A stretch of DNA of 64,000 nucleotides, from the NCBI GenBank assembly GCA_052035405.1, contig JBPOHQ010000007.1, positions 12,292-76,291 on the forward strand. The letters run 5' to 3'. Source of the stretch: Candidatus Nomurabacteria bacterium. Lineage in GTDB: Bacteria; Patescibacteriota; Minisyncoccia; Phycocordibacterales; UBA9973. Position numbers and translations under genes: made by a program. This document shows positions 2,271 to 19,167 of the stretch, one piece after another (the first letter of the stretch is position 1; the number at the start of each line of letters is the position of its first letter). Under the pieces are notes generated by a model. That model made no database searches, was not told the origin of the DNA, and was given only the letters and a program-made list of their open reading frames with translations.

Positions 2271-5200
2271 ATGAAATCACATTTCGTCTCGGGATATATA
2301 TTAAAAAAGTTTCTCTCAGTTTTTCTTATAGTTTCCTTCTTTATGGCGCCACTAGCGCCTATTTTTGCGCAAGAGGCAACCTTGGATAATTCTGCACCTG
2401 TTAGTACAGAGTCATCATCTCCAGTGGTACTAGATATCCTTCCAAGTGTAGATACTTTGACTGTTACATCAAATGAAACAACGATAGATGCATCGCCACA
2501 GATTGATACCACACCTGTAGATACGCCTACGGATGTAATAACTGACCCAAAAGACGAAAAACCTATTGAAGAAGTACCTGTAGATGAAGTTCCAGTTGAA
2601 GAAGAACCTGAGATGATGATGTCGATGATGGGTGGCACTGGAGGATTCCTTGGAGATACTCGTGATTTACCCAATATCGGATTTCCATCAGTAGATAAAG
2701 CTTCTGGTGGATTGTCATATAGCTATCCTTTAACATTGCCTCCTGGAAGAAATGGACTAGACCCAAAGCTTGCTCTTGAATACTCTAGTCAAGAAAATGA
2801 CCAAGGTAATTTGTTTGGTTATGGTTGGAATATCAATATCCCATATATAAAAAGAATCAATAAAACAGGTATAGAAAAGCTATATACTGACAATTACTTC
2901 TACTCCTCACTCTCTGGTGAACTTGTGTTAGTCTCTGGTACTACCTATGCACCAAAAGTAGAAGACGGAAGATTTTTAACTTATACATTTGATGGTACAT
3001 ATTGGACAGTAAAGTCAAAGGATGGATCGGTATATAAGTTTGGATACAATGCTGGTGCAAGACAAAATAATTCCGGAGACACAAAGACTTTTAAATGGAT
3101 GTTAGAGGAAGAGCGCGATACGAATAATAACTATATTAAGTATGAATACTATAAAAATGGAGGCCAAATATATCCTGATACCATAAGCTACACAGGCAAT
3201 GCATCGACCGACGGTATTTTTACTGTTGTGTTCTCTAGAGCTAGTAGAAACGATGCTGTAACTCAAGATTTTGGAGTTTTTGATGTAACGACAAGCTATA
3301 GAATCAGTGAAATACAGGCAAATATTAACGGCACCTGGGCTAGAAAATATACTCTAGGATATTCAAATGGTGACAATAGCCAGAGATCGTTGTTAACTAA
3401 CATTACTGAAGCAGGACAAGATGAAAGTTCAAATACCACCACCCTTTCACCAGTAGAATTTACCTATCAAGTTGCTACAACATCGAGTGCTGACTTCGTT
3501 ACAGATTCAGCTTGGTCCACAGCTGCTTCATCGACAATAAATACAAACCCATCTTATGGAACAATTGTTGCTGATTTAAACGATGATGGTTTGCCTGATG
3601 TTATGGAATCTTGGAGAGGGGCCAATGATGTATGGTATAAAGGAACATATTTAAATGATGGTGATGGTACTTGGACCCAGGATACAAACCTAACTCCACC
3701 AATTGAATTTGCTGGTAACAGTCCATTGAATGAGTTTGGAATTAGATCAGTTGATTTAAATGCAGATGGTTTGACTGACCTTGTACAAAGTTACAGTAAT
3801 GGTCCAGGTCAAAGCAACACAATACAAAGAGTATATATTAATACTGGAACTTCCTGGTCTCTTGATACGAGTTGGCAGCCATCTTGTTTTTTTCTTGGTT
3901 GGCCGCAAGGGGATAGTGGTTGTAGGTTAATAGATATAAACGGAGATGATTTACCAGATTTCGTCAATGCTGTTGGTGATAACAATGGTAATTCACCAAT
4001 CACAACCTCAGTTTATTTAAACACTGGTAGTGGTTGGAGTAGTAGTTCTGGTTGGAGTATTCCAGTTGATTTGCGTTTCGGTGTAATGCTTGTTGATTAC
4101 AATGGAGACGGGTTGGTTGATATTTTGAAAGGATACAAAAATCCAGACGCTAATCCAGCTATTTATATACAAGAGGCGTATAAAAATAATGGGGATAAAA
4201 CTTGGTCTTCTGACAGTGCGTATACACCACCTGTATACTTTGCAGTTCAAACAAATGGTTCTTCCTTGCCAGTTGGTACAGGAATACAACTAGCCGACAT
4301 TAACGGAGATGGAATGATAGATATTTTACGAGGCAGTGAGACTACTGATGGCGCATATTTAAATAAAGGGAATGGTTGGCACTTAACTACTAACTGGGAT
4401 TTTGGACATGGATCAGTGCCAGTTACTAGTGCTTCGCCTGTTAGGTTTGGAGATTTCGATGGTGATGGAATGATAGACAGATACGAAACAAGTGGTAGTG
4501 GTGGTGCAACAATGCAGAAAAATCAAAATGTTAAAGCTGACTTGATGTCTACAGTTAAGAATCAGTACGGCGGTGTAACAACAGTTACATACAAAGGTTC
4601 ACCTAAATACACTAGTGGCGGTTCAATCTTAAATCCTGATTTACCATTTATATTAATGACGGTATATCAGACTTCTACTGATTCTGGTTTTGGAAATTCA
4701 AATATCGTAAACACATACTCCTATGAAGGGGGTGATTATTATTACAACACCATTACAGACAGAAGGTTCTCTGGGTTTAATAAAATATCGGTAAGTGATG
4801 GTACGACTAAAACCACTACTTTTTATCATCAGGGTAATGCTACAGATTCATCAAACGGAGAATACAGTGACCACTCTTCAAAAATTGGTAAAGTGTACCG
4901 AGTAGAAACAAGTGATACTTCTGGGAATGTATATAAAAAGGTTGTGAACAAATGGGATAAATATAATCAAGGCACAGGCCGAGATTTTGTTAAACCAGTT
5001 CGTTCCACAGTATTAACCTATGACGGTGATAGTGATCACAAAGATATAGCAGAGGAATATACCTATGACAATACTTACGGAAATCTAACAGACAAAATAA
5101 TGTGGGGTGAGGTTACTGGTTCCAATGATGGTTCATTCACCGATACTGGATCTGATAAATACACTGAGAGTATTTCATATACCGCTAATACCACAGACTA

Positions 5201-8200
5201 CATTGTGGGCTTACCATATCAAGATACAGTTGTTGACCAAAGTTCAAATAAAGTTCGCGAGTCAAAGACATACTATGATACTCAATCATTAGGCACAGTC
5301 ACTGATGGGAATATAACAAAAGTAGAAAGATGGAAGACGGGCAGTACCTATGTAAACACTCAAAAGGCATATAACACTACCTACGGCATCCCAACTTCTT
5401 CTACTGACGAACGAGGTAAAACTACCACTTATAGCTATGATTTATACAACCTGTATCCAGCTACAGTCACAAATCCACTGTCTCAGGCAGTAAGTTATAC
5501 TTATGACTACTCACTGGGTAAACCAAAGCAATTCACTGACCAAAACAGCTTTGTATATCAGACTGTTTACGACGGACTAGATAGAGTAAAAGAAGAAAAG
5601 GTTCCAGACTTGTCTTCACCATATTCTCCAATAACTAAAACTGCATATACCTACACCGATACTTCTGGATCTATAGCTGTACAGAAAACAGCATACCTTG
5701 ATGGTTCAAACACAGCTCTTTCATATACATACTTTGATAAACTAAATCGACCAATCCAAACTCGAGTAGAAAATGAGAGTGATTATAACGTTAAAGATTT
5801 CTTGTACAATGCAGCTGGATTACTACAAAAGGAATCCTTACCATATTCTTCTTCAGGTACTGCTATTACCACGGCTAACAGCACTGCATCACTCTATCAT
5901 AATTTCACCTATGATCCATTACAGAGAATTTCTACACAAGTAAACAATGTCGGAACAACTTCATATGCCTATGACGACTGGAAGACATCTATAACTGATC
6001 CAAATACTAAGTTAAAACACTATTACAAAGACGCATACGACAATCTAATTCGTGTTGATGAAACAAATAGTGGAAGTACATATAGTACCTATTATGAATG
6101 GAATGGTAATAAACTATTGACTAAGATTACTGATGCATTAAGCAATATAAGAAGCTTTACTTATAATGGACTTGGTCGCAGACTAACAGCGGAAGACATT
6201 CATGCTTCTGCTGATGGTACCTATGGTACTTGGACATATACTTATGATGATGCTGGTAACCTAACTCAAAGTGTGAACCCGAATAGTCAAACTGTTAACT
6301 ACACTTATAATGATATTAATCAAGTATTAACAGAGAATTATACAGGCGATACCGGAACTGAAATTACATACACATATGGAGGGTGCACCAACGGTACAGG
6401 TAAACTTTGTAGTATAAACATGCTAAATGGTGCAGATACTGATTATACATACAATTCAAACGGTGGTATTGCATCAGAGGTTAAGACAATAAGCAGCACA
6501 GGATATACCACTTCATACACCTATGATAGACAAAGTAACATTCTAGAAATTACCAATCCAGACAGCTCTAAGGTTAAATACAATTTCAATACCGCTGGAA
6601 CGATGGAAACTATCCAAAGAAAAGAGAGCGGTGATGCCAGTTATACCAATGTGATTACTGACATGGACTATGGCCCACACGGAAAGAATACTTACAGAGA
6701 ATTTCTAAATGGCATAAATACAACCAATACCTTTGATGCCACCAAGTTATACAGACTAACTAGAATAAATACAATAAACCCAAATGATACTTCCTCTGGT
6801 TCACCGACAACCACCACATTCTACGCTAATTCTTCCGGTGACGGTCATATCGAGGCTTACAATTCAAACTGGGACACTGTGCACGACAATACAGCTGGTT
6901 CTTATATATCTCGTACCGCTACAACGAACGAGGTTCAAGTACGCAGACATTCAGGTAATTATTATATTTTTAGAGAATTCTTACCATTTGATACTTCTTC
7001 TTTGCCAGACAATGCTTCTATTAGTGCTACAGATCTAAGTATATATATTACTGATAAATCTAATGTAGATAACGATGGTGATGACTTTGTTACTGTGGTT
7101 CAAACATCTCAAGCAAGCACTAGTGAATTAGATTACGAAGATTTTGACCAAGCTGGTGCAGTAAATAATCCTACCGAAGGTGTTGCTACTTCCGATAGAA
7201 AAGATATTACTTCTATCAGTAATGGCTGGCTTGCATTCCCATTAAACAGCACAGGAAGGTCTTGGATTTCAACTACTGGTTACACAAAATTAGGTCTTAG
7301 GGAGGGTCATGATGTATTAGACAATACTATAACCAACTTTGACGACGATAATGATGTAAATAGTATCAAGTTTAGATCTGCTAATTATAGCGGTACATCC
7401 TCTGACCCTAAATTAGATGTGACCTATACTATTCCTGTTGCTACCGACTTTCAAGACATTAATTACACTTATGATGCTAACGGAAATATCACCCAAATAG
7501 TTGATAGCTCAGATACTAATGCTTCTAAAACCGTTGTCTACACTTACGATGATTTAAATCGAATGCTAACCGCTACCGCTACAGGCGTGGCGGGTGGTCA
7601 AAGTACTTACACTCATACCTATACATATAACGCAACAGGTAACATAACATCGAGTCCTTTTGGAACTTATGACTATAGCAGTAGTGGTTTTGCAAATCCA
7701 CATGCAGTAACATCAATTGTAAATGCTTTGAATAATAATCCGGTGATTACCTTAACTGGTTCTGACTTGATTTATCTGAATCTGGGCGATTCGTGGACTG
7801 AACCAGGCTACAGTGCCACAGATGCAGAAGACGGTAATTTAACTTCTAGTGTCACTGTGACTGGTTCGGTGGATACAAATACATTAGGAGTCTATAAACT
7901 TATATATAATGTCACAGACTCAAGCGGTCTACCTGCAGCAGGTGTGGCAAGAACTATATCTGTTAGACAGCCTTATAACCCAAAAGTAAAAACATTGGTT
8001 GTGGCTGGTGGTGGTGCAGGAGGAGCTGGAGATGGTTATAGCGGTGGCGGTGGAGGAGGTGCTGGTGGAGTAATTGAAGATAATGCTTTTGGAGTAACAG
8101 CTCAGAATTATAGTATTACTGTTGGTGATGGCGGTAGAGTGACCTATGCAGAGAGTGGAAGTAATTCAGTCTTCTCTACATTAACTGCTGTGGGTGGTGG

Positions 8201-10232
8201 AGTAGGCGCAAGAAGTTTCTTTAATGGTACTAGTGGAGGTTCTGGCGGGGGAGGGTCCGCTACAAACAATGGAGGTACTGGTACATCTGGACAAGGTAAT
8301 AGTGGTGGAAACGGTGCTACTGGAAGTTATAAAGCTGGTGGTGGAGGAGGGGGTGCTACTGCTACCGGATCAAATGCTGGAGCATCCGATAATGGTGCAA
8401 ATGGCGGAGCGGGCATATCTAGCTCAATTACAGGAATATCTACTACTTATGCTGGTGGTGGTGCAGGAGGAGCTAAGAACAGTAACTATAACGGCGGTAC
8501 TGGTGGAACTGGCGGAGGGGGAAATGGTAGCGGAGTAAATGGATGTACCGCCGGAGCAGCAAATAAGGGCGGAGGCGGAGGCGGTGCAAGGGGCGGATCT
8601 GACCCTTGTGATGGGGGTAAGGGTGTAGTAATTATTGCTTACAAATCCGATGGCACTGATGGAGTATCATCTTCATCAACTGGTGGAACCATTACAACAT
8701 CAGGAGGATATCAAATACATCAATTCAATAGCAATGGTACTTTTGGTTCTGTTCTAAGTAATTACAATTCTCCAAGTAATAATAATCCAGTCATTACTTT
8801 GACCGGGCAGAGCGTGCTTAATGTCGCCGTCAACAGTACTTGGACCGAACCAGGCTATAGTGCCAGTGATACAGAAGACGGGAACTTGACTTCAAATGTT
8901 GTGGTGACTGGTTCGGTGGATACAGCAACCCCAGGTGTATACAACCTAGTGTACAGTGTTGTTGATTCAGGCAATGCTTCTGCTATAACAAAAGTTAGAA
9001 CTGTGTTAGTAAGTAATTCAGTTAGCACTACTAATTACTCTTACGATAACAATGGCAATATGCTTACCCAAACCAACGGTCTATCAAATACTTGGAATTA
9101 CAAAAACCAACTTACTCAGGCAGTAAAAGGAGGAGTTACTAGTACATACACCTACGATTACACAGGACAGAGAGTAAAGCTTGGAAATGGTACTACTACT
9201 ACCGTATATCCAAGTATGTATTACAGTACTGATGGAACTACAAAAACAAAGAGTGTTTATATTGGTGGAACACAAGTTGCTACTATAGAAACTGTTGGCT
9301 CTACCACAACTCCATACTATATACACACAGATCACTTAAATTCTATAAATGTAGTATCTGATAACACTGGAGCTAAGGTTGAATTACTAGATTACTATCC
9401 TTATGGAAGCACACGCATATCTTCTGGTTCATACACAAATCAAAAGCAATACATTGGGCAATACTACGATACAAACACCTCGTTAAATTATCTAAATGCA
9501 AGGTATTATCACAATACAAATGGACAATTTATATCTCAAGATCTAATGTTTTGGACATTACCCCAAGAATTACTTTTTGATCCACAACTACAAAATTCTT
9601 ACAGCTATGCAAGTAACAACCCTATAATCAATAGCGACCCGAGTGGACTTATAAGTAAGTCAGACTTTTCTCCGGGCAACATTGCAAATAGGATTAACAA
9701 CATCCTTAACTCTTATTTTGGAAAGAGTCAAAATCAAAATAGTCAAATTGTTAGCCCAATACAGACAAAACAAAATACAAATGTAAGTCAATTAACTGAT
9801 AATAAAATGGGTTCAGTTGATTATGGACAATATAATGTAACATCAACTAATCTACGCAACCGCCTGGATAAATTTGCCAATGATACCAATCAGAATATAA
9901 TTGTAACTTCAGGAGATCGCTCTTCTGAAAGAAACAAATTAGTTGGTGGCGCAAATGCAAGTAGGCACTTGAATGGTGACGCTGCAGATATTAAGGTGAA
10001 TGGTGTTCAAAATGAACAATTGTCATATATGGCAAATGCATCTGGATTATTTAATACAACTATTTATTATCCTGTAGTAGATTTACCGAAAGCACTTGCT
10101 CCTCACGTTCATGTCGACTTAAACCCCGCAAACAATAACATTTTAAGGATATATGTTCCTTATATGAAAGGTGATTCTATCGTGAATGATTATAAGCCCC
10201 TAATTAACCCCTTAATAAGGGGTAAGCAATAA
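2271..10232 (+). CDS. Sec-secreted giant polymorphic toxin (WapA-like / fused TcB-TcC-like architecture): signal peptide, acidic S/T/P-rich linker, SpvB-like domain, FG-GAP/VCBS beta-propeller repeats, RHS/YD-repeat shell, Ig-like and Gly-rich insertions, RHS core with DPxGL, C-terminal peptidase-M15 (MepK/YcbK-like) toxin domain
   Basis: 2653-aa ORF. N-terminal MKSHF...FAQE signal. SpvB-like LPNIGFPSVDKASGGLSYSYPLTLPPGRNGLDP. Repeated DxNxDGxxD motifs (DLNDDGLPDV, VDLNADGLTDL, IDINGDDLPDF, VDYNGDGLVDI, ADINGDGMIDI, GDFDGDGMIDR). More than 15 YD repeats (YTYDxxGNL...). RHS core YYIHTDHLNS...DYYPYG...ARYYHNTNGQFISQD...DPSGL. Confidence 0.9.
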   Translation: MKSHFVSGYILKKFLSVFLIVSFFMAPLAPIFAQEATLDNSAPVSTESSSPVVLDILPSVDTLTVTSNETTIDASPQIDTTPVDTPTDVITDPKDEKPIEEVPVDEVPVEEEPEMMMSMMGGTGGFLGDTRDLPNIGFPSVDKASGGLSYSYPLTLPPGRNGLDPKLALEYSSQENDQGNLFGYGWNINIPYIKRINKTGIEKLYTDNYFYSSLSGELVLVSGTTYAPKVEDGRFLTYTFDGTYWTVKSKDGSVYKFGYNAGARQNNSGDTKTFKWMLEEERDTNNNYIKYEYYKNGGQIYPDTISYTGNASTDGIFTVVFSRASRNDAVTQDFGVFDVTTSYRISEIQANINGTWARKYTLGYSNGDNSQRSLLTNITEAGQDESSNTTTLSPVEFTYQVATTSSADFVTDSAWSTAASSTINTNPSYGTIVADLNDDGLPDVMESWRGANDVWYKGTYLNDGDGTWTQDTNLTPPIEFAGNSPLNEFGIRSVDLNADGLTDLVQSYSNGPGQSNTIQRVYINTGTSWSLDTSWQPSCFFLGWPQGDSGCRLIDINGDDLPDFVNAVGDNNGNSPITTSVYLNTGSGWSSSSGWSIPVDLRFGVMLVDYNGDGLVDILKGYKNPDANPAIYIQEAYKNNGDKTWSSDSAYTPPVYFAVQTNGSSLPVGTGIQLADINGDGMIDILRGSETTDGAYLNKGNGWHLTTNWDFGHGSVPVTSASPVRFGDFDGDGMIDRYETSGSGGATMQKNQNVKADLMSTVKNQYGGVTTVTYKGSPKYTSGGSILNPDLPFILMTVYQTSTDSGFGNSNIVNTYSYEGGDYYYNTITDRRFSGFNKISVSDGTTKTTTFYHQGNATDSSNGEYSDHSSKIGKVYRVETSDTSGNVYKKVVNKWDKYNQGTGRDFVKPVRSTVLTYDGDSDHKDIAEEYTYDNTYGNLTDKIMWGEVTGSNDGSFTDTGSDKYTESISYTANTTDYIVGLPYQDTVVDQSSNKVRESKTYYDTQSLGTVTDGNITKVERWKTGSTYVNTQKAYNTTYGIPTSSTDERGKTTTYSYDLYNLYPATVTNPLSQAVSYTYDYSLGKPKQFTDQNSFVYQTVYDGLDRVKEEKVPDLSSPYSPITKTAYTYTDTSGSIAVQKTAYLDGSNTALSYTYFDKLNRPIQTRVENESDYNVKDFLYNAAGLLQKESLPYSSSGTAITTANSTASLYHNFTYDPLQRISTQVNNVGTTSYAYDDWKTSITDPNTKLKHYYKDAYDNLIRVDETNSGSTYSTYYEWNGNKLLTKITDALSNIRSFTYNGLGRRLTAEDIHASADGTYGTWTYTYDDAGNLTQSVNPNSQTVNYTYNDINQVLTENYTGDTGTEITYTYGGCTNGTGKLCSINMLNGADTDYTYNSNGGIASEVKTISSTGYTTSYTYDRQSNILEITNPDSSKVKYNFNTAGTMETIQRKESGDASYTNVITDMDYGPHGKNTYREFLNGINTTNTFDATKLYRLTRINTINPNDTSSGSPTTTTFYANSSGDGHIEAYNSNWDTVHDNTAGSYISRTATTNEVQVRRHSGNYYIFREFLPFDTSSLPDNASISATDLSIYITDKSNVDNDGDDFVTVVQTSQASTSELDYEDFDQAGAVNNPTEGVATSDRKDITSISNGWLAFPLNSTGRSWISTTGYTKLGLREGHDVLDNTITNFDDDNDVNSIKFRSANYSGTSSDPKLDVTYTIPVATDFQDINYTYDANGNITQIVDSSDTNASKTVVYTYDDLNRMLTATATGVAGGQSTYTHTYTYNATGNITSSPFGTYDYSSSGFANPHAVTSIVNALNNNPVITLTGSDLIYLNLGDSWTEPGYSATDAEDGNLTSSVTVTGSVDTNTLGVYKLIYNVTDSSGLPAAGVARTISVRQPYNPKVKTLVVAGGGAGGAGDGYSGGGGGGAGGVIEDNAFGVTAQNYSITVGDGGRVTYAESGSNSVFSTLTAVGGGVGARSFFNGTSGGSGGGGSATNNGGTGTSGQGNSGGNGATGSYKAGGGGGGATATGSNAGASDNGANGGAGISSSITGISTTYAGGGAGGAKNSNYNGGTGGTGGGGNGSGVNGCTAGAANKGGGGGGARGGSDPCDGGKGVVIIAYKSDGTDGVSSSSTGGTITTSGGYQIHQFNSNGTFGSVLSNYNSPSNNNPVITLTGQSVLNVAVNSTWTEPGYSASDTEDGNLTSNVVVTGSVDTATPGVYNLVYSVVDSGNASAITKVRTVLVSNSVSTTNYSYDNNGNMLTQTNGLSNTWNYKNQLTQAVKGGVTSTYTYDYTGQRVKLGNGTTTTVYPSMYYSTDGTTKTKSVYIGGTQVATIETVGSTTTPYYIHTDHLNSINVVSDNTGAKVELLDYYPYGSTRISSGSYTNQKQYIGQYYDTNTSLNYLNARYYHNTNGQFISQDLMFWTLPQELLFDPQLQNSYSYASNNPIINSDPSGLISKSDFSPGNIANRINNILNSYFGKSQNQNSQIVSPIQTKQNTNVSQLTDNKMGSVDYGQYNVTSTNLRNRLDKFANDTNQNIIVTSGDRSSERNKLVGGANASRHLNGDAADIKVNGVQNEQLSYMANASGLFNTTIYYPVVDLPKALAPHVHVDLNPANNNILRIYVPYMKGDSIVNDYKPLINPLIRGKQ
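2650..3130 (+). other. SpvB/TcB N-terminal-like domain of the RHS protein
   Basis: Motifs SYSYPLTLPPGRNGLDPKLALEYSS...GYGWNINIPYI. Confidence 0.6.
3540..4500 (+). other. FG-GAP/VCBS-type beta-propeller repeat region (six or more DxNxDGxxD blades)
   Basis: Calcium-binding-like loops recur every ~50-60 aa. Confidence 0.6.
5040..6560 (+). other. RHS/YD-repeat shell, main block (further YD repeats at 7450-7640 and 9030-9200)
   Basis: YxYDxxGNL/TxxxD repeats throughout. Confidence 0.8.
7731..7970 (+). other. Ig-like (DUF5011/HYR-like) domain, copy 1
   Basis: NNNPVITLTGSDLIYLNLGDSWTEPGYSATDAEDGNLTSSVTVTGSVDT...; paralogous to 8779-9012. Confidence 0.5.
7995..8650 (+). other. Gly-rich low-complexity insertion (GGxGG/GGGGGG blocks, ~215 aa) inside the RHS protein
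   Basis: Runs of GGT/GGA/GGC codons; ends ...CDGGKGVVIIAYKSDG. Confidence 0.7.
8779..9012 (+). other. Ig-like (DUF5011/HYR-like) domain, copy 2
   Basis: NNNPVITLTGQSVLNVAVNSTWTEPGYSASDTEDGNLTSNVVVTGSVDT...; about 70 % nt identity to copy 1 by eye. Confidence 0.5.
9030..9650 (+). other. RHS repeat-associated core domain ending in the DPxGL aspartyl-autoprotease motif (DPSGL at 9636-9650)
   Basis: YYIHTDHLNS, DYYPYG, LNARYYHNTNGQFISQD, DPSGL. Confidence 0.8.
9651..10229 (+). other. C-terminal toxin domain: peptidase M15A / DUF882 (MepK/YcbK-like murein peptidase) fold
   Basis: TSGDRSSERNKLVGGANASRHLNGDAADI (9909-9992) matches the SGYRSxxxNxxVGGAxxSxHxxGxAxDI signature; HVHVD (10104-10118) supplies the HxH zinc ligands. 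Confidence 0.7.
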
Positions 10233-10233
10233 T

Positions 10234-10830
10234 ATGAAAACCAAACACATAATAATTGTAATTTTATTCGTGATTATAACTTCATACTTATTACTTAATA
10301 ATAAATTTGGAAAAGTTGCGAATAGCTGGAAATTTCAAAAGGTTATTGGGCAAACAATATTCTTTTCGAATAATCAACAATTTAATATTAACTTGTATGA
10401 CCTAAAATACGTCGGGCAACTATCTTCAGGCAAAGATAATCCGTTTTTTATAGTTTCAGGTAGAACTTGTCATAATTGTGACGAGAATCTAGCTATATAT
10501 ATATATTCTCCTAAAATAGGACTTATTAAAGAAAATAACGAACCTATAAGGTATTCATACCCAGGGAAAGAATATGATTACTCAAACAATAAACTTATTT
10601 TCGAATCCAGAATGTTCTATGGCCAGTGCTTAGATAAAAACAGTAGTTCAATTATTTGGTTTCAAAAGGAACTTGGCTCAAATGAAGTTTACAAAGAAAG
10701 TGCATTTGCTTTAGAGGTTATAGGAGAAAATATAAAAGAATCAATCAAAAAAGATACTGATTTGAGTATAGAACAAATCATAAAAAATTGTAACGAATTA
10801 CCAGGTGTTGACGTTACTACTCAACCTTAA
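10234..10830 (+). CDS. Candidate cognate immunity protein (N-terminal membrane anchor, extracytoplasmic Cys-containing domain)
   Basis: Starts 2 nt after the RHS stop codon; MKTKHIIIVILFVIITSYLLL anchor; no recognisable family. Confidence 0.5.
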   Translation: MKTKHIIIVILFVIITSYLLLNNKFGKVANSWKFQKVIGQTIFFSNNQQFNINLYDLKYVGQLSSGKDNPFFIVSGRTCHNCDENLAIYIYSPKIGLIKENNEPIRYSYPGKEYDYSNNKLIFESRMFYGQCLDKNSSSIIWFQKELGSNEVYKESAFALEVIGENIKESIKKDTDLSIEQIIKNCNELPGVDVTTQP

Positions 10831-10996
10831 AGCATAAAGGCATCAGGAGCCTTTTCTGAAATAGAATTAAAAATTTTATGAAAAACTTACTTTCAAAAAT
10901 CCTAATCCTGCTCTTCCTACTTGCCCCACTTCAACCCCTCTTCGCCTCTGAATCTCAACCAGAGACCCTTGTCACATATATTTGATTTACCGTTTG

Positions 10997-15877: not shown

Positions 15878-17230
15878 GTGCTTTTAACTTTATATAGAGA
15901 AATGCCCAAAAAACAAAAGATACAGGGAAAAATAAAAAAAGTTTCAGTCTTAAACAAGAAATCCACAAAGACCCTAAAAAAGCCTCAAATGAAAACACCT
16001 GTAAAAAATAAAAAAACTATTTCATTAAAAAAAACAACTAAAAAAAACACAGGCAAGTTCCTTAAAAAGAAAACCGTAGTCAAAGTTAAAAAAGTAGTGG
16101 CTAAAATTATAAAAAAAATTTCTGCACAGAAGGGTTCTAAGAAGATACTAAAAAAGAAGATAGTTAAAATTTCAAAGAAAAAAGTTGAAGATGTTTTACC
16201 AAAAGAAGGAATCAAATTAAGTAGGGCATATGCGAATCCTATTATCGAACCACGACTGTACTCTTGGGAATCAAAAGCTACGTTTAATCCAACTGCTTTT
16301 TTTTCAAATGGAAAAATACACCTCATCTACCGTGCTGTAGGCTGGGATGATATTTCCGTTTTAGGATATGCCTCTAGTTTTAATGGGTATAAGATTGAAG
16401 AACGTCCCCCATATCACATATATAGAAGATTCTCAAAAACAGAACCAATAGGACCAAAATTAGATTATGGATCTGGTGGTGGGTGGTCTGGAGGTTGTGA
16501 AGATCCTCGAATCACCCTTGTCGGAGATAGATTGTATATGTTATACACTGCCTTTGATGGTTGGAGTTCAGTACGTATTGCTTTGACCTCAATATCTTTA
16601 GAAGATTTTAGAAAACATCGCTGGGATAAATGGGAACACCCTGTCCTCATTTCTCCTCCAGGGGAAATAAATAAAAATTGGGTTATTTTTCCAGAGAAAA
16701 TAAATGGAAAGTTTGCCATTATGCACAGTTTTTACCCTAATATTTTAATTGACTATTTTGACACCTTGGATCATTTTGATGGCAAAACAAAATTTATCAA
16801 GAGTAATAATACCCGACCAGTAGATAAGACTCGAGGTTGGGATAGTTGGTTTCGTGGTGTCGGTCCGGCTCCCATGAGAATAAAAGAAGGTTGGCTCGTC
16901 TTGTATCATGCTATGGATCATAAAAATCCTGATAGATATAAAATGGGTGCACTCATACTCGACGGCAAGGATCCAACAAAAATTTTATATAGATCATCGC
17001 ACCCTATCTTGGAACCCGAAGCTCATTATGAGAATGAAGGGCATAAGTGGGGAGTGGTATATTCTTGCGGTGCAATTATAAAAGACGGAAGACTTTTTGT
17101 ATACTATGGAGGAGCTGATACGGTAGTTTGTGTTGCTTCGATTCCAGTAGCTGAATTAGTAGACCACCTGAAGAAAAATAAAGTAATAAAATTACAAAAC
17201 GATAAAATAGTAAAAACAAAAACAAAATAA
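15878..17230 (+). CDS. GH130 glycoside phosphorylase (beta-mannoside phosphorylase family) with an ~100-aa N-terminal Lys-rich tail
   Basis: GCEDPRITLVGDRLYMLYTAFDG GH130 signature; N-terminal KKxK repeats. Confidence 0.7.
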   Translation: MLLTLYREMPKKQKIQGKIKKVSVLNKKSTKTLKKPQMKTPVKNKKTISLKKTTKKNTGKFLKKKTVVKVKKVVAKIIKKISAQKGSKKILKKKIVKISKKKVEDVLPKEGIKLSRAYANPIIEPRLYSWESKATFNPTAFFSNGKIHLIYRAVGWDDISVLGYASSFNGYKIEERPPYHIYRRFSKTEPIGPKLDYGSGGGWSGGCEDPRITLVGDRLYMLYTAFDGWSSVRIALTSISLEDFRKHRWDKWEHPVLISPPGEINKNWVIFPEKINGKFAIMHSFYPNILIDYFDTLDHFDGKTKFIKSNNTRPVDKTRGWDSWFRGVGPAPMRIKEGWLVLYHAMDHKNPDRYKMGALILDGKDPTKILYRSSHPILEPEAHYENEGHKWGVVYSCGAIIKDGRLFVYYGGADTVVCVASIPVAELVDHLKKNKVIKLQNDKIVKTKTK

Positions 17231-17235
17231 AAAAT

Positions 17236-19167
17236 ATGTACGTAGCAAAAAGATCACAAAAAAATCCACTGATTGTTCCAAACAAAAATCATTACTGGGA
17301 AGAGTTTGCAACATTTAATGTGTGTCCAATAAAGAAAGGTGCTACTGTGTATGGTTTGTATCGAGCAATATCCGCATCAGATCAAATGCGTACCCCACAC
17401 CAAGTTTCTGTGATTGGTATTACAAAGAGTAAAGATGGGGAAAATTTTGGTGAGACAGATACTTTTATTATTCCAGAAAAAGAATGGGAACAATATGGTT
17501 GTGAAGATCCACGTGTCACGTATTTTGAGGGTAAATTTTATATTTTTTATACTGCATTATCCAAATATCCTCTTGGACCGGAAGGTATTAAGGTGGCTGT
17601 TGCTATCTCGAAAGATCTCAAAAAAGTAGAAAGTAGGCACTTTGTTACACCATTCAACGCAAAAGCAATGACCCTTTTCCCAGAGAGAATAAACGGGAAA
17701 ATTGTGGTTATGTTTTCAGCTCACACAGACATGCCTCCAGCAAAGATGGTTTTTGCTTATTTAGATAAAATCGAAGAATTATGGTCACCAATTTTTTGGG
17801 AAAAATGGAGTGAGAACATAAATAGTCACATTATCGATCCTCGACGGAATCCCTATGATCATGTCGAGGTTGGTGCTCCACCATTAAAGACAAGATATGG
17901 TTGGCTGCTTGTTTATTCTCATATACAGAACTATTTTCCAAATCCGGACAAACTAGCTCCAATCTTCGGTATCGAAGCAATTCTATTGGATTTAAAAGAC
18001 CCGACTAAAATAATAGGTCATACTCGAGGACCTATATTAGTACCGGAAGAACAATACGAGTTGTCTGGTTATATTGCTAATGTTATTTTTCCAAGTGGAG
18101 CACTTATTGAAAAAGATACGTTAAAGATTTATTACGGAGCGGCAGATACAACTTCTTGTATGGCAAGAGTAAACCTTACAGATCTTATTTACAGCATGCA
18201 TTATAGATATGCAGATACTTATCGTTTTAAAAGATTTTTAGGTAACCCTATAATTGCTCCAAAACCAGAAAACCCTTTTGAGTCAAAGGCCACATTTAAT
18301 CCAGCATCAGTAACCATAGGTGATAAGATTTATATTCTTTATCGAACTTTATCTGAAGACAACACTTCTACTATCGGTCTTGCTGTCACAAAGAACGGTT
18401 ACGATATCATAGAAAGACTCGATAAACCTATTTATGTACCAAGAGAGGATTTTGAAATAAAAAAGATTCCTAATGCAAATTCTGGTTGTGAAGATCCACG
18501 ATTAACGAAGATAGGCAATAAAATTTATATGTGCTATACAGCTTTTGATTCATATGGACCACCAAGAGTTGCTATCACTTCAATTTTAGAAAAAGATTTA
18601 GTTGCAAGGAATTTTAATTGGGCTAAGCCATTTTTAATTACTCCTGGAGATTTAGATGATAAAGATACGTGTATTTTGCCGGAAAAATTTAAAGATGGAT
18701 ATTTTGTTTTACATAGAATAAATAGCATGATTTGTGGTGATTATCTTAGTTCTCTTGAGTTTAACTCTGAACCTGTTAAAAAATGTTTGAGAATTTTAGG
18801 CCCCCGAATAAATACTTGGGATAGTCTCAAGGTGGGTATCGCATGTCCTCCTATAAAGACCAAAAAAGGCTGGTTGCTCTTATATCATGGCGTTTCAAAG
18901 AGTCATAGTACATACAGAGTAGGTGCAGTACTTCTCGATCTAAAAGATCCTGCAATAGTTCTTGCTCGAGGTAGTGAGCCAATCTTTGAACCAGAAGAAC
19001 AATATGAAAAGATTGGTATAGTAAATAATGTAGTTTTCCCTTGTGGTATGGAGGTTAAAAAAGATTTACTATTCATCTATTATGGTGGAGCAGATAGGGT
19101 TGTCGGTGTTGCCACGATGAAACTCGACATTATCCTTAAGACTCTCACAAACAGTATAAAATACTAG
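17236..19167 (+). CDS. Tandem double GH130 domain protein
   Basis: Two copies of the GCEDPR(V/L)T...Y(I/M)xYTA motif. Confidence 0.7.
   Translation: MYVAKRSQKNPLIVPNKNHYWEEFATFNVCPIKKGATVYGLYRAISASDQMRTPHQVSVIGITKSKDGENFGETDTFIIPEKEWEQYGCEDPRVTYFEGKFYIFYTALSKYPLGPEGIKVAVAISKDLKKVESRHFVTPFNAKAMTLFPERINGKIVVMFSAHTDMPPAKMVFAYLDKIEELWSPIFWEKWSENINSHIIDPRRNPYDHVEVGAPPLKTRYGWLLVYSHIQNYFPNPDKLAPIFGIEAILLDLKDPTKIIGHTRGPILVPEEQYELSGYIANVIFPSGALIEKDTLKIYYGAADTTSCMARVNLTDLIYSMHYRYADTYRFKRFLGNPIIAPKPENPFESKATFNPASVTIGDKIYILYRTLSEDNTSTIGLAVTKNGYDIIERLDKPIYVPREDFEIKKIPNANSGCEDPRLTKIGNKIYMCYTAFDSYGPPRVAITSILEKDLVARNFNWAKPFLITPGDLDDKDTCILPEKFKDGYFVLHRINSMICGDYLSSLEFNSEPVKKCLRILGPRINTWDSLKVGIACPPIKTKKGWLLLYHGVSKSHSTYRVGAVLLDLKDPAIVLARGSEPIFEPEEQYEKIGIVNNVVFPCGMEVKKDLLFIYYGGADRVVGVATMKLDIILKTLTNSIKY

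Follow-up and report, generated by a model that had tools for sequence, protein, structure and literature searches.

Does the small gene that directly follows a large RHS toxin gene encode the antidote to that toxin? We addressed this question for a locus in the window, a term that we use for the whole 64,000-nucleotide stretch of DNA analysed here. The features to which the text refers are as follows:

2271-10232, + strand: toxin gene, 2653 aa (open reading frame list, translation and Pfam domains above cutoffs)
9636-9650, + strand: DPSGL motif of the RHS core tip, toxin aa 2456-2460, at which a weak NCBIfam Rhs_assc_core match ends
9810-10229, + strand: M15 (LAS-fold) zinc peptidase domain, toxin aa 2514-2653 (Pfam Peptidase_M15_3)
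9960-9992, + strand: SRHLNGDAADI, containing the predicted zinc ligands H2566 and D2573
10104-10118, + strand: HVHVD, one His of which is a predicted zinc ligand
10217-10222, + strand: AAGGGG, a putative Shine-Dalgarno-like sequence within the end of the toxin gene, 11 nt 5' of the ATG of the immunity gene
10234-10830, + strand: candidate immunity gene (open reading frame, homologues and conserved adjacency to M15 C-terminal domains)
10234-10302, + strand: predicted N-terminal signal-anchor, aa 1-23 (AF2 helix 3-23; homologues have the same anchor or a lipobox here)
10468-10488, + strand: CHNCDEN (C79-x-x-C82-D83-E84-N85), in a loop between strands 71-77 and 87-92
10816-10827, + strand: C-terminal tail TTQP ([ST]-[ST]-E-P in the family), at which the protein ends exactly

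Results

The toxin gene and its C-terminal peptidase domain

Read from its N-terminus, the toxin comprises a signal peptide, an SpvB domain, an FG-GAP region, RHS repeats, an Ig-like/Gly-rich/Ig-like insert, the RHS core tip and a C-terminal M15 domain, and its Pfam matches above cutoffs are SpvB, FG-GAP_3, RHS_repeat, Bact_surface_Ig-like, Gly_rich_2 and Peptidase_M15_3. Residues 1-33 are predicted to form a Sec-type signal peptide. An SpvB N-terminal domain, an FG-GAP propeller, RHS/YD repeats and a DPxGL tip are all present, which places the carrier among proteins of the RHS / Tc-toxin BC type. We take DPSGL to be the core-tip motif of RHS proteins, which separates the shell from the toxin domain and is their self-cleavage site; from its position at residues 2456-2460, cleavage is predicted to release a tip of toxin aa 2461-2653.

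Within the RHS shell lies a block of ~433 aa (toxin aa ~1817-2249, window ~7719-9017) in which two Bact_surface_Ig-like domains flank Gly_rich_2. This block is missing from the toxin of a related locus, L005, which is elsewhere 87-88% identical to the window toxin.

A number of features place the tip among the M15/LAS peptidases: firstly, the profile match to Peptidase_M15_3 has an E value of 6.9e-14 and scores 52.3 bits against a Pfam cutoff of 23.2; secondly, the ligands expected of such enzymes, H-x6-D and H-x-H, are present, and the corresponding residues of the C-terminal domain (H53, D60, H99 and H101) do not vary among the nine C-terminal domains aligned; thirdly, the AF2 model of the domain (pLDDT 87.3) has the Hedgehog/DD-peptidase fold, its best Foldseek matches being 1LBU, the Hedgehog N-domain, endolysin LysECD7, ChiX and VanY, with 6rmg and 2wfx among the fold matches. 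A profile built from nine M15 tips had 1LBU, the Streptomyces Zn D-Ala-D-Ala carboxypeptidase, as its sole match in the PDB, aligned over SRH..AAD, and the domain falls in the PHROGs endolysin family phrog_894. On the strength of the 1LBU profile match, the invariant ligands and the fold and PHROGs matches, the tip is apparently a catalytically intact LAS/M15 peptidoglycan peptidase.

The downstream gene and its product, predicted to be membrane-anchored

The open reading frame at 10234-10830 (+) starts with ATG and encodes 198 aa plus a stop. Its homologues range from 90% to ~25% identity and have the same start position and conserved motifs, which shows that this is a real gene and no chance reading frame. 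The toxin reading frame (2271-10232) closes with TAA at 10230-10232 and the next ATG lies at 10234, leaving a gap of 1 nt; the two genes are probably transcribed together and translationally coupled. The G+C content of the immunity gene is 28.6%, as against 38.5% for the toxin gene (2271-10229), 34.2% for the toxin C-terminal domain and 35.3% for the whole window.

The product begins with MKTKHIIIVILFVIITSYLLL: three basic residues (K2, K4 and H5) and then a hydrophobic helix of 18 residues. AlphaFold places a helix over residues 3-23. Inspection of this anchor revealed no evident AxA-type cleavage site, and by the positive-inside rule the protein is predicted to adopt an N-in/C-out topology. 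Beyond the anchor lies a hydrophilic, all-beta domain that contains four cysteines: C79 and C82 (in TCHNCDEN), C132 and C186. The initial annotation had given the same stop and start positions, with which the sequence agrees, and had called an N-terminal membrane anchor, which the hydrophobic helix over residues 3-23 bears out; of the cysteines that it described, CHNCDEN is indeed present, and the "several further Cys" come down to just two, C132 and C186.

Sigma-70-like promoter matches occur at 9874-9901 (11/12; within the toxin gene towards its 3' end, 5' of both the M15 domain and the immunity gene) and, similarly, at 2193-2221, 5' of the toxin gene. A promoter and terminator scan of the window gave counts no higher than those in shuffled sequence, and an Rfam scan of the window gave no match. 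Just downstream of the immunity gene, a 35-codon open reading frame (10879-10986) encodes what seems to be a lone signal peptide (MKNLLSKILILLFLLAPLQPLFASE...) and may be the remnant of a gene for a secreted protein. Further along, at 15878-19167, a pair of neighbouring Glyco_hydro_130 (mannoside phosphorylase-like) genes is found beside a mannose-1-phosphate guanylyltransferase-like gene, and the remaining window resembles ordinary chromosome (DnaE, MsrA, MscL).

A new protein family and its predicted fold

The initial annotation had recognised no family for the 198-residue protein, and none was found: there was no match at E <= 0.1 in Pfam, with its Imm*, SUKH and DUF families, or in NCBIfam, and no match in PHROGs. 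When 67 family members were compared with Pfam, just scattered chance matches under the cutoffs were returned, and the names under which the source databases list the relatives all say little ('hypothetical protein', or labels as general as 'Secreted protein'). By exhaustive phmmer search, the family comprises 525 clusters (50% identity) at E <= 1e-3 and 262 at E <= 1e-10. Judged by these comparisons, this is a new protein family, lacking any Pfam, NCBIfam or PHROGs model, in what would be a known kind of job.

Conservation across the family is concentrated in G76-R-x-C79-x-x-C82-D83-(E)-N85, Y-x-Y-P110-G111, R-M-F-Y-G130-x-C132, W142, C186-x-E188-L-P-G191 and E197-P198. The most conserved of these motifs is CHNCDEN (C79 and C82 96%, D83 92%, N85 87%), the two cysteines of which are almost always jointly present or jointly absent. 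Between about a fifth and a quarter of members have another residue, mostly Val, in place of C132, and in these C186 is often retained. A zinc site made of all four cysteines was rejected, since C132 is often Val though C186 persists and C79 and C82 vary as a pair. At the C-terminus, EP is the exact end in 190 of the 239 members considered, and most of the others stop at the equivalent alignment column; the window protein has QP as its last two residues, with Q at a motif position where 95% of the family has E.

Export signals are near-universal in the family. A lipobox or hydrophobic N-terminus was found in at least 192 of the 239 members (at least 80%), and many of those outside this number have an apparently truncated N-terminus or, on inspection, a signal-like sequence; the Bacteroidota homologues are predicted to carry a lipid anchor. 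Some members bear extra N-terminal domains, namely SH3-like or multi-TM regions. A search of the long members P0034, P0058, P0025, P0146 and P0153 for fusions to an M15 domain found none, the extra regions being TM, SH3-like or unassignable.

With an alignment of 67 sequences, AlphaFold modelled the window protein with a pLDDT of 90.7 and a pTM of 0.79, as the helix over residues 3-23 followed by ~13 strands and one short helix. Searching the PDB and BFVD with this model by Foldseek gave no significant match (best E 0.11, TM <= 0.25), and a profile search of PDB chains with the family gave 0 matches at E <= 10. The fold, confidently predicted, thus matched no solved structure in the PDB and BFVD searches.

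Family members recur directly downstream of M15 toxin tips

Loci came from two sources, exact look-up of proteins and scans of genome and metagenome collections, and were then screened with HMMs of the family and of the M15 tip. With duplicates removed, an intact M15 C-terminal domain lies directly upstream of a family member in 16 independent loci (the window, L005, L012, L024, L026, L001, L002, L015, L010, L008, L030, L031, L037, L049, L050 and L051), which include MAGs labelled Saccharibacteria (L012), Bacteroidetes (L002) and Bacteroidales (L015). The gap between toxin and partner is 0-12 nt in L005, L001, L002, L008 and L010. The carriers are of several kinds: SpvB/RHS in the window and L005; RHS with the N-terminus cut by the contig end in L012 and L024; RHS with DUF6443 in L008; RHS in L001; and short proteins of 260-480 aa in L002, L015, L010, L031 and L037, of which L002 and L015 may be orphan cassettes, given their weak match to the RHS tip. 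The partner therefore accompanies one type of C-terminal domain across differing N-terminal carriers in these 16 loci.

The association also holds in reverse. When the toxin tip alone served as the query, a family gene lay directly downstream in all three of the matches looked up (L049-L051), and in three further loci (L011, L013 and L017) a frameshifted or truncated M15 remnant adjoins the family gene. Among the recovered loci, those whose partner is at least ~43% identical to the window protein are all toxin-linked except L006 and L045. Pairwise distances among the C-terminal domains correlate with those among their partners (Mantel r = 0.79, p = 2e-4, 12 pairs), a correlation of sequences that shows co-inheritance as a module, not binding.

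The initial annotation had argued from position and topology for immunity to an extracytoplasmic M15 toxin, an argument now supported by the 16 loci, the three remnants, the three-of-three reverse result and the export signals. It had suggested seeking homologues next to other M15-type toxin tips, and it is there, behind differing carriers, that the 16 independent loci have them; homologues consistently without toxins, which it thought would tell against immunity, are confined to the more distant branches, namely Microbulbifer and a number of metagenomic lipoproteins.

Genes for pilin (N_methyl), prepilin peptidase, T2SSE ATPase, secretin and PilN come directly after the pair in two unrelated loci. 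Pilin/T2SS-type genes lie at 11322-20663 in L001, 6312-9331 in L008 and 1965-8866 in L009, and the pilin, T2SSE and secretin genes may constitute the route of toxin export in those hosts. At 5148-6695 of the Saccharibacteria MAG locus L012, there is, downstream of the immunity gene, an open reading frame that has an RHS repeat and a core tip and resembles an orphan RHS-CT cassette.

Family members without a neighbouring toxin

No M15 toxin lies near the family gene in about 15 unique loci, six of which are from Microbulbifer species; elsewhere, no M15 tip was found in the available sequence of L006, L016, L033-L035, L039, L040, L043-L045 and L048, and many distant family members are solo lipoproteins. 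In the six Microbulbifer species (L018-L023), the family gene lies at ~5800-6480 in each, at a single syntenic position of the core genome next to rhodanese/UPF0176, ParA-like and MetG genes, and the 6 kb to each side contain no M15 toxin. Family paralogues of several size classes occur in the genus as well. These ~15 toxin-free loci, with the six syntenic ones among them, mean that the family may perform, or may have acquired, some function that is not tied to an adjacent toxin.

In L016, a Flavobacterium MAG locus, the stretch 3554-6630 holds an orphan RHS tip (YKYLFNGQE...DPSGL) with a C-terminal domain other than M15, unassigned, Gly-rich and hydrophobic; three small membrane open reading frames follow, and then, 1.4 kb downstream, a family member, which makes this an orphan-cassette array.

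How far do these solitary genes alter the interpretation? The syntenic, toxin-free core orthologue of six Microbulbifer species, the several paralogue size classes in that genus and the many distant solo lipoproteins, some with extra SH3-like or multi-TM N-terminal regions, are what would be expected if the family served primarily to regulate or inhibit M15/LAS peptidases in general outside the cytoplasm, or were some other wall lipoprotein, and toxin modules had merely recruited it. Even then the window gene would still be inhibitory, and 'immunity family' would simply be too narrow a label. We regard this explanation as improbable, for several reasons. Orphan immunity genes are already known as a feature of polymorphic toxin systems; the orphan of L016 sits in an RHS cassette array and three other loci lie beside decayed toxins; the Microbulbifer orthologues are 53-67% identical where their neighbours are 85-95% identical, a faster divergence that suits a conflict gene better than a housekeeping gene; and the partners at or above the ~43% identity level are toxin-linked save for L006 and L045. 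Orphan copies, copies beside decayed toxins (L011, L013 and L017) and a cassette array (L016) are all traits of the immunity type. By analogy, the orphan pattern fits orphan immunity genes, yet it leaves room for a broader role of the family.

The same loci bear on whether the 198-residue protein might be an accessory of the toxin (a chaperone, an adaptor for export or activation, or a second toxic component) and not its antidote. Tight coupling and co-inheritance would be expected of an obligate helper too, but helpers are not normally retained after their toxin has decayed, as in L011, L013 and L017, nor are they normally kept solo, yet many genomes have solo copies. Moreover, the protein is predicted to be membrane- or lipid-anchored on the producer, whereas the toxin has a signal peptide of its own, and the module operates with unrelated carriers. 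An accessory function is thus very improbable.

That the adjacency is fortuitous and the reading frame belongs to an unrelated small membrane protein, as its lack of domain annotation might suggest, has next to no probability and is effectively refuted by a recurrence (16 loci from varied sources, MAG labels and carriers, and three of three toxin-chosen loci) far beyond chance for a domain found in few genes per genome.

Discussion

Taken together, these data make it likely that the 198-residue product confers immunity, as cognate partner, to the M15 domain of the RHS toxin encoded upstream. This reading rests on what is shown here, namely the order of the genes, their co-inheritance, the signals for export and what kind of enzyme the toxin domain is, and, as far as sequence prediction goes, the compartment of the partner (TM helix or lipobox) is also the site of action of the toxin, a peptidoglycan peptidase. 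Set against it are the loci (about 15) with no M15 toxin nearby, the Q that the window protein has where 95% of the family has E and, should the producer be monoderm (Saccharibacteria-like, as L012 is labelled), the difficulty of squaring a tethered inhibitor with the outer layers of the wall.

If the immunity reading is right, the helix would insert the protein into the cytoplasmic membrane, as the lipid anchor would in the Bacteroidota homologues, and the beta-domain would sit in the peptidoglycan-containing compartment, where it would presumably bind toxin domain that reaches the wall of the producer itself or of a sibling, with one immunity protein blocking the zinc active site of one toxin. 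Two candidate contacts can be imagined: firstly, the free C-terminus, a candidate inhibitory element because its position is fixed across the family, might plug its -E/Q-P into the carboxylate-binding, carboxypeptidase-like pocket; secondly, a CxxC-stapled hairpin loop might present D83 to the zinc. Both have parallels that serve as mechanistic leads only. The metallocarboxypeptidase inhibitors PCI, LCI and TCI insert their tail in the zinc site, which recalls the positionally fixed free C-terminus of the family; a loop Asp of HHIP reaches the zinc of Sonic hedgehog, which recalls the Asp-bearing stapled hairpin, the toxin sharing the LAS fold with Hedgehog. Neither PCI, LCI and TCI nor HHIP has any sequence or fold relationship to the family.

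A bolder possibility, tentative and in our judgement rather unlikely, is that the family represents widespread, structurally new inhibitors of LAS/M15 peptidases. These would act by zinc-site mimicry of substrate or product, through -[ST]-E-P-COOH or through the CxxC-stapled Asp hairpin, and the Microbulbifer core gene would be a standing defence or a regulator of the cell's own wall endopeptidase.

Anchored immunity proteins that act outside the cytoplasm have precedents. TipC of Streptococcus intermedius has an N-terminal TM helix and a domain outside the monoderm membrane and guards against TelC, an externally acting lipid II phosphatase secreted by a T7SS. The likeness lies in a TM-helix-anchored immunity protein set against a toxin that hits the cell-wall pathway from outside; the toxin and the secretion route are unrelated, however, and no homology of the present family to solved chains was detected. 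The T6SS immunity proteins Tsi1, Tai3 and Tai4 are periplasmic, small, exported or lipid-anchored, encoded beside a wall-degrading effector and bind that effector directly. They resemble the window protein in being exported small proteins encoded beside a wall-cutting toxin, to which the window protein would bind by inference; unlike them, it has no PDB sequence match (0 at E <= 10) and no fold match, and its toxin combines an M15 zinc peptidase with a Sec-exported RHS carrier, where the T6SS counterpart is an amidase. Tai3 has been cited as the immunity protein of Tae3 (PMC11796386).

M15 domains have been predicted before in T6SS effectors, namely Tpe14AB of Acinetobacter baumannii, with a Peptidase_M15 domain (PMC6833914), and the WHIX effectors (PMC12135965). 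As here, an M15 antibacterial effector is accompanied by neighbouring signal-peptide proteins proposed as immunity proteins, but the carriers are those of the T6SS. Literature searches for an immunity protein of M15 effectors turned up such predicted effectors and no described partner family; several other 'M15' matches were lacZ-delta-M15 strain genotypes.

The closest likeness in layout is to the RHS/WapA systems (RhsA-RhsI, WapA-WapI; PMC3482391), which have the same succession of signal or trafficking domain, RHS shell, DPxGL tip, variable C-terminal domain and linked immunity gene, and which share orphan CT/immunity cassettes with the family studied here. The immunity protein of the window would be exported, not cytoplasmic as in RhsA-RhsI and WapA-WapI, because the C-terminal domain is predicted to be an extracytoplasmic peptidoglycan peptidase. 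By analogy with these systems, we have here a classical pair of RHS polymorphic toxin and immunity gene. One Saccharibacteria genome has also been noted to carry an RHS toxin with an immunity gene beside it (PMC6031116). In the sections consulted, the 2012 catalogue of such systems (Zhang et al., PMC3482391) describes Tox-LD-peptidase, of the YkuD fold, together with Imm16 and the mostly alpha Imm57; those sections contain neither an M15 domain nor an all-beta partner of the present kind. The loci described here document an M15 peptidoglycan peptidase, absent from those sections of the catalogue, as an exchangeable RHS toxin tip.

These analyses tie a sizeable unannotated family (525 clusters) to a concrete, testable function, the neutralisation of M15-type wall-cutting toxins, through a module that occurs under both Saccharibacteria and Bacteroidota MAG labels. 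Since new immunity families often turn up in toxin-immunity pairs, the finding is solid without being surprising. It goes beyond routine in the predicted fold without a match, the fixed -E-P C-terminus, the domesticated-looking Microbulbifer orthologues and the possible Patescibacterial host. A natural protein inhibitor of LAS peptidases could serve as a tool against M15 endolysins and VanY/VanX-type enzymes. If the organism of the window is an epibiotic Patescibacterium, the toxin could target the walls of its host or of rivals, and the partner would explain how the producer protects itself.
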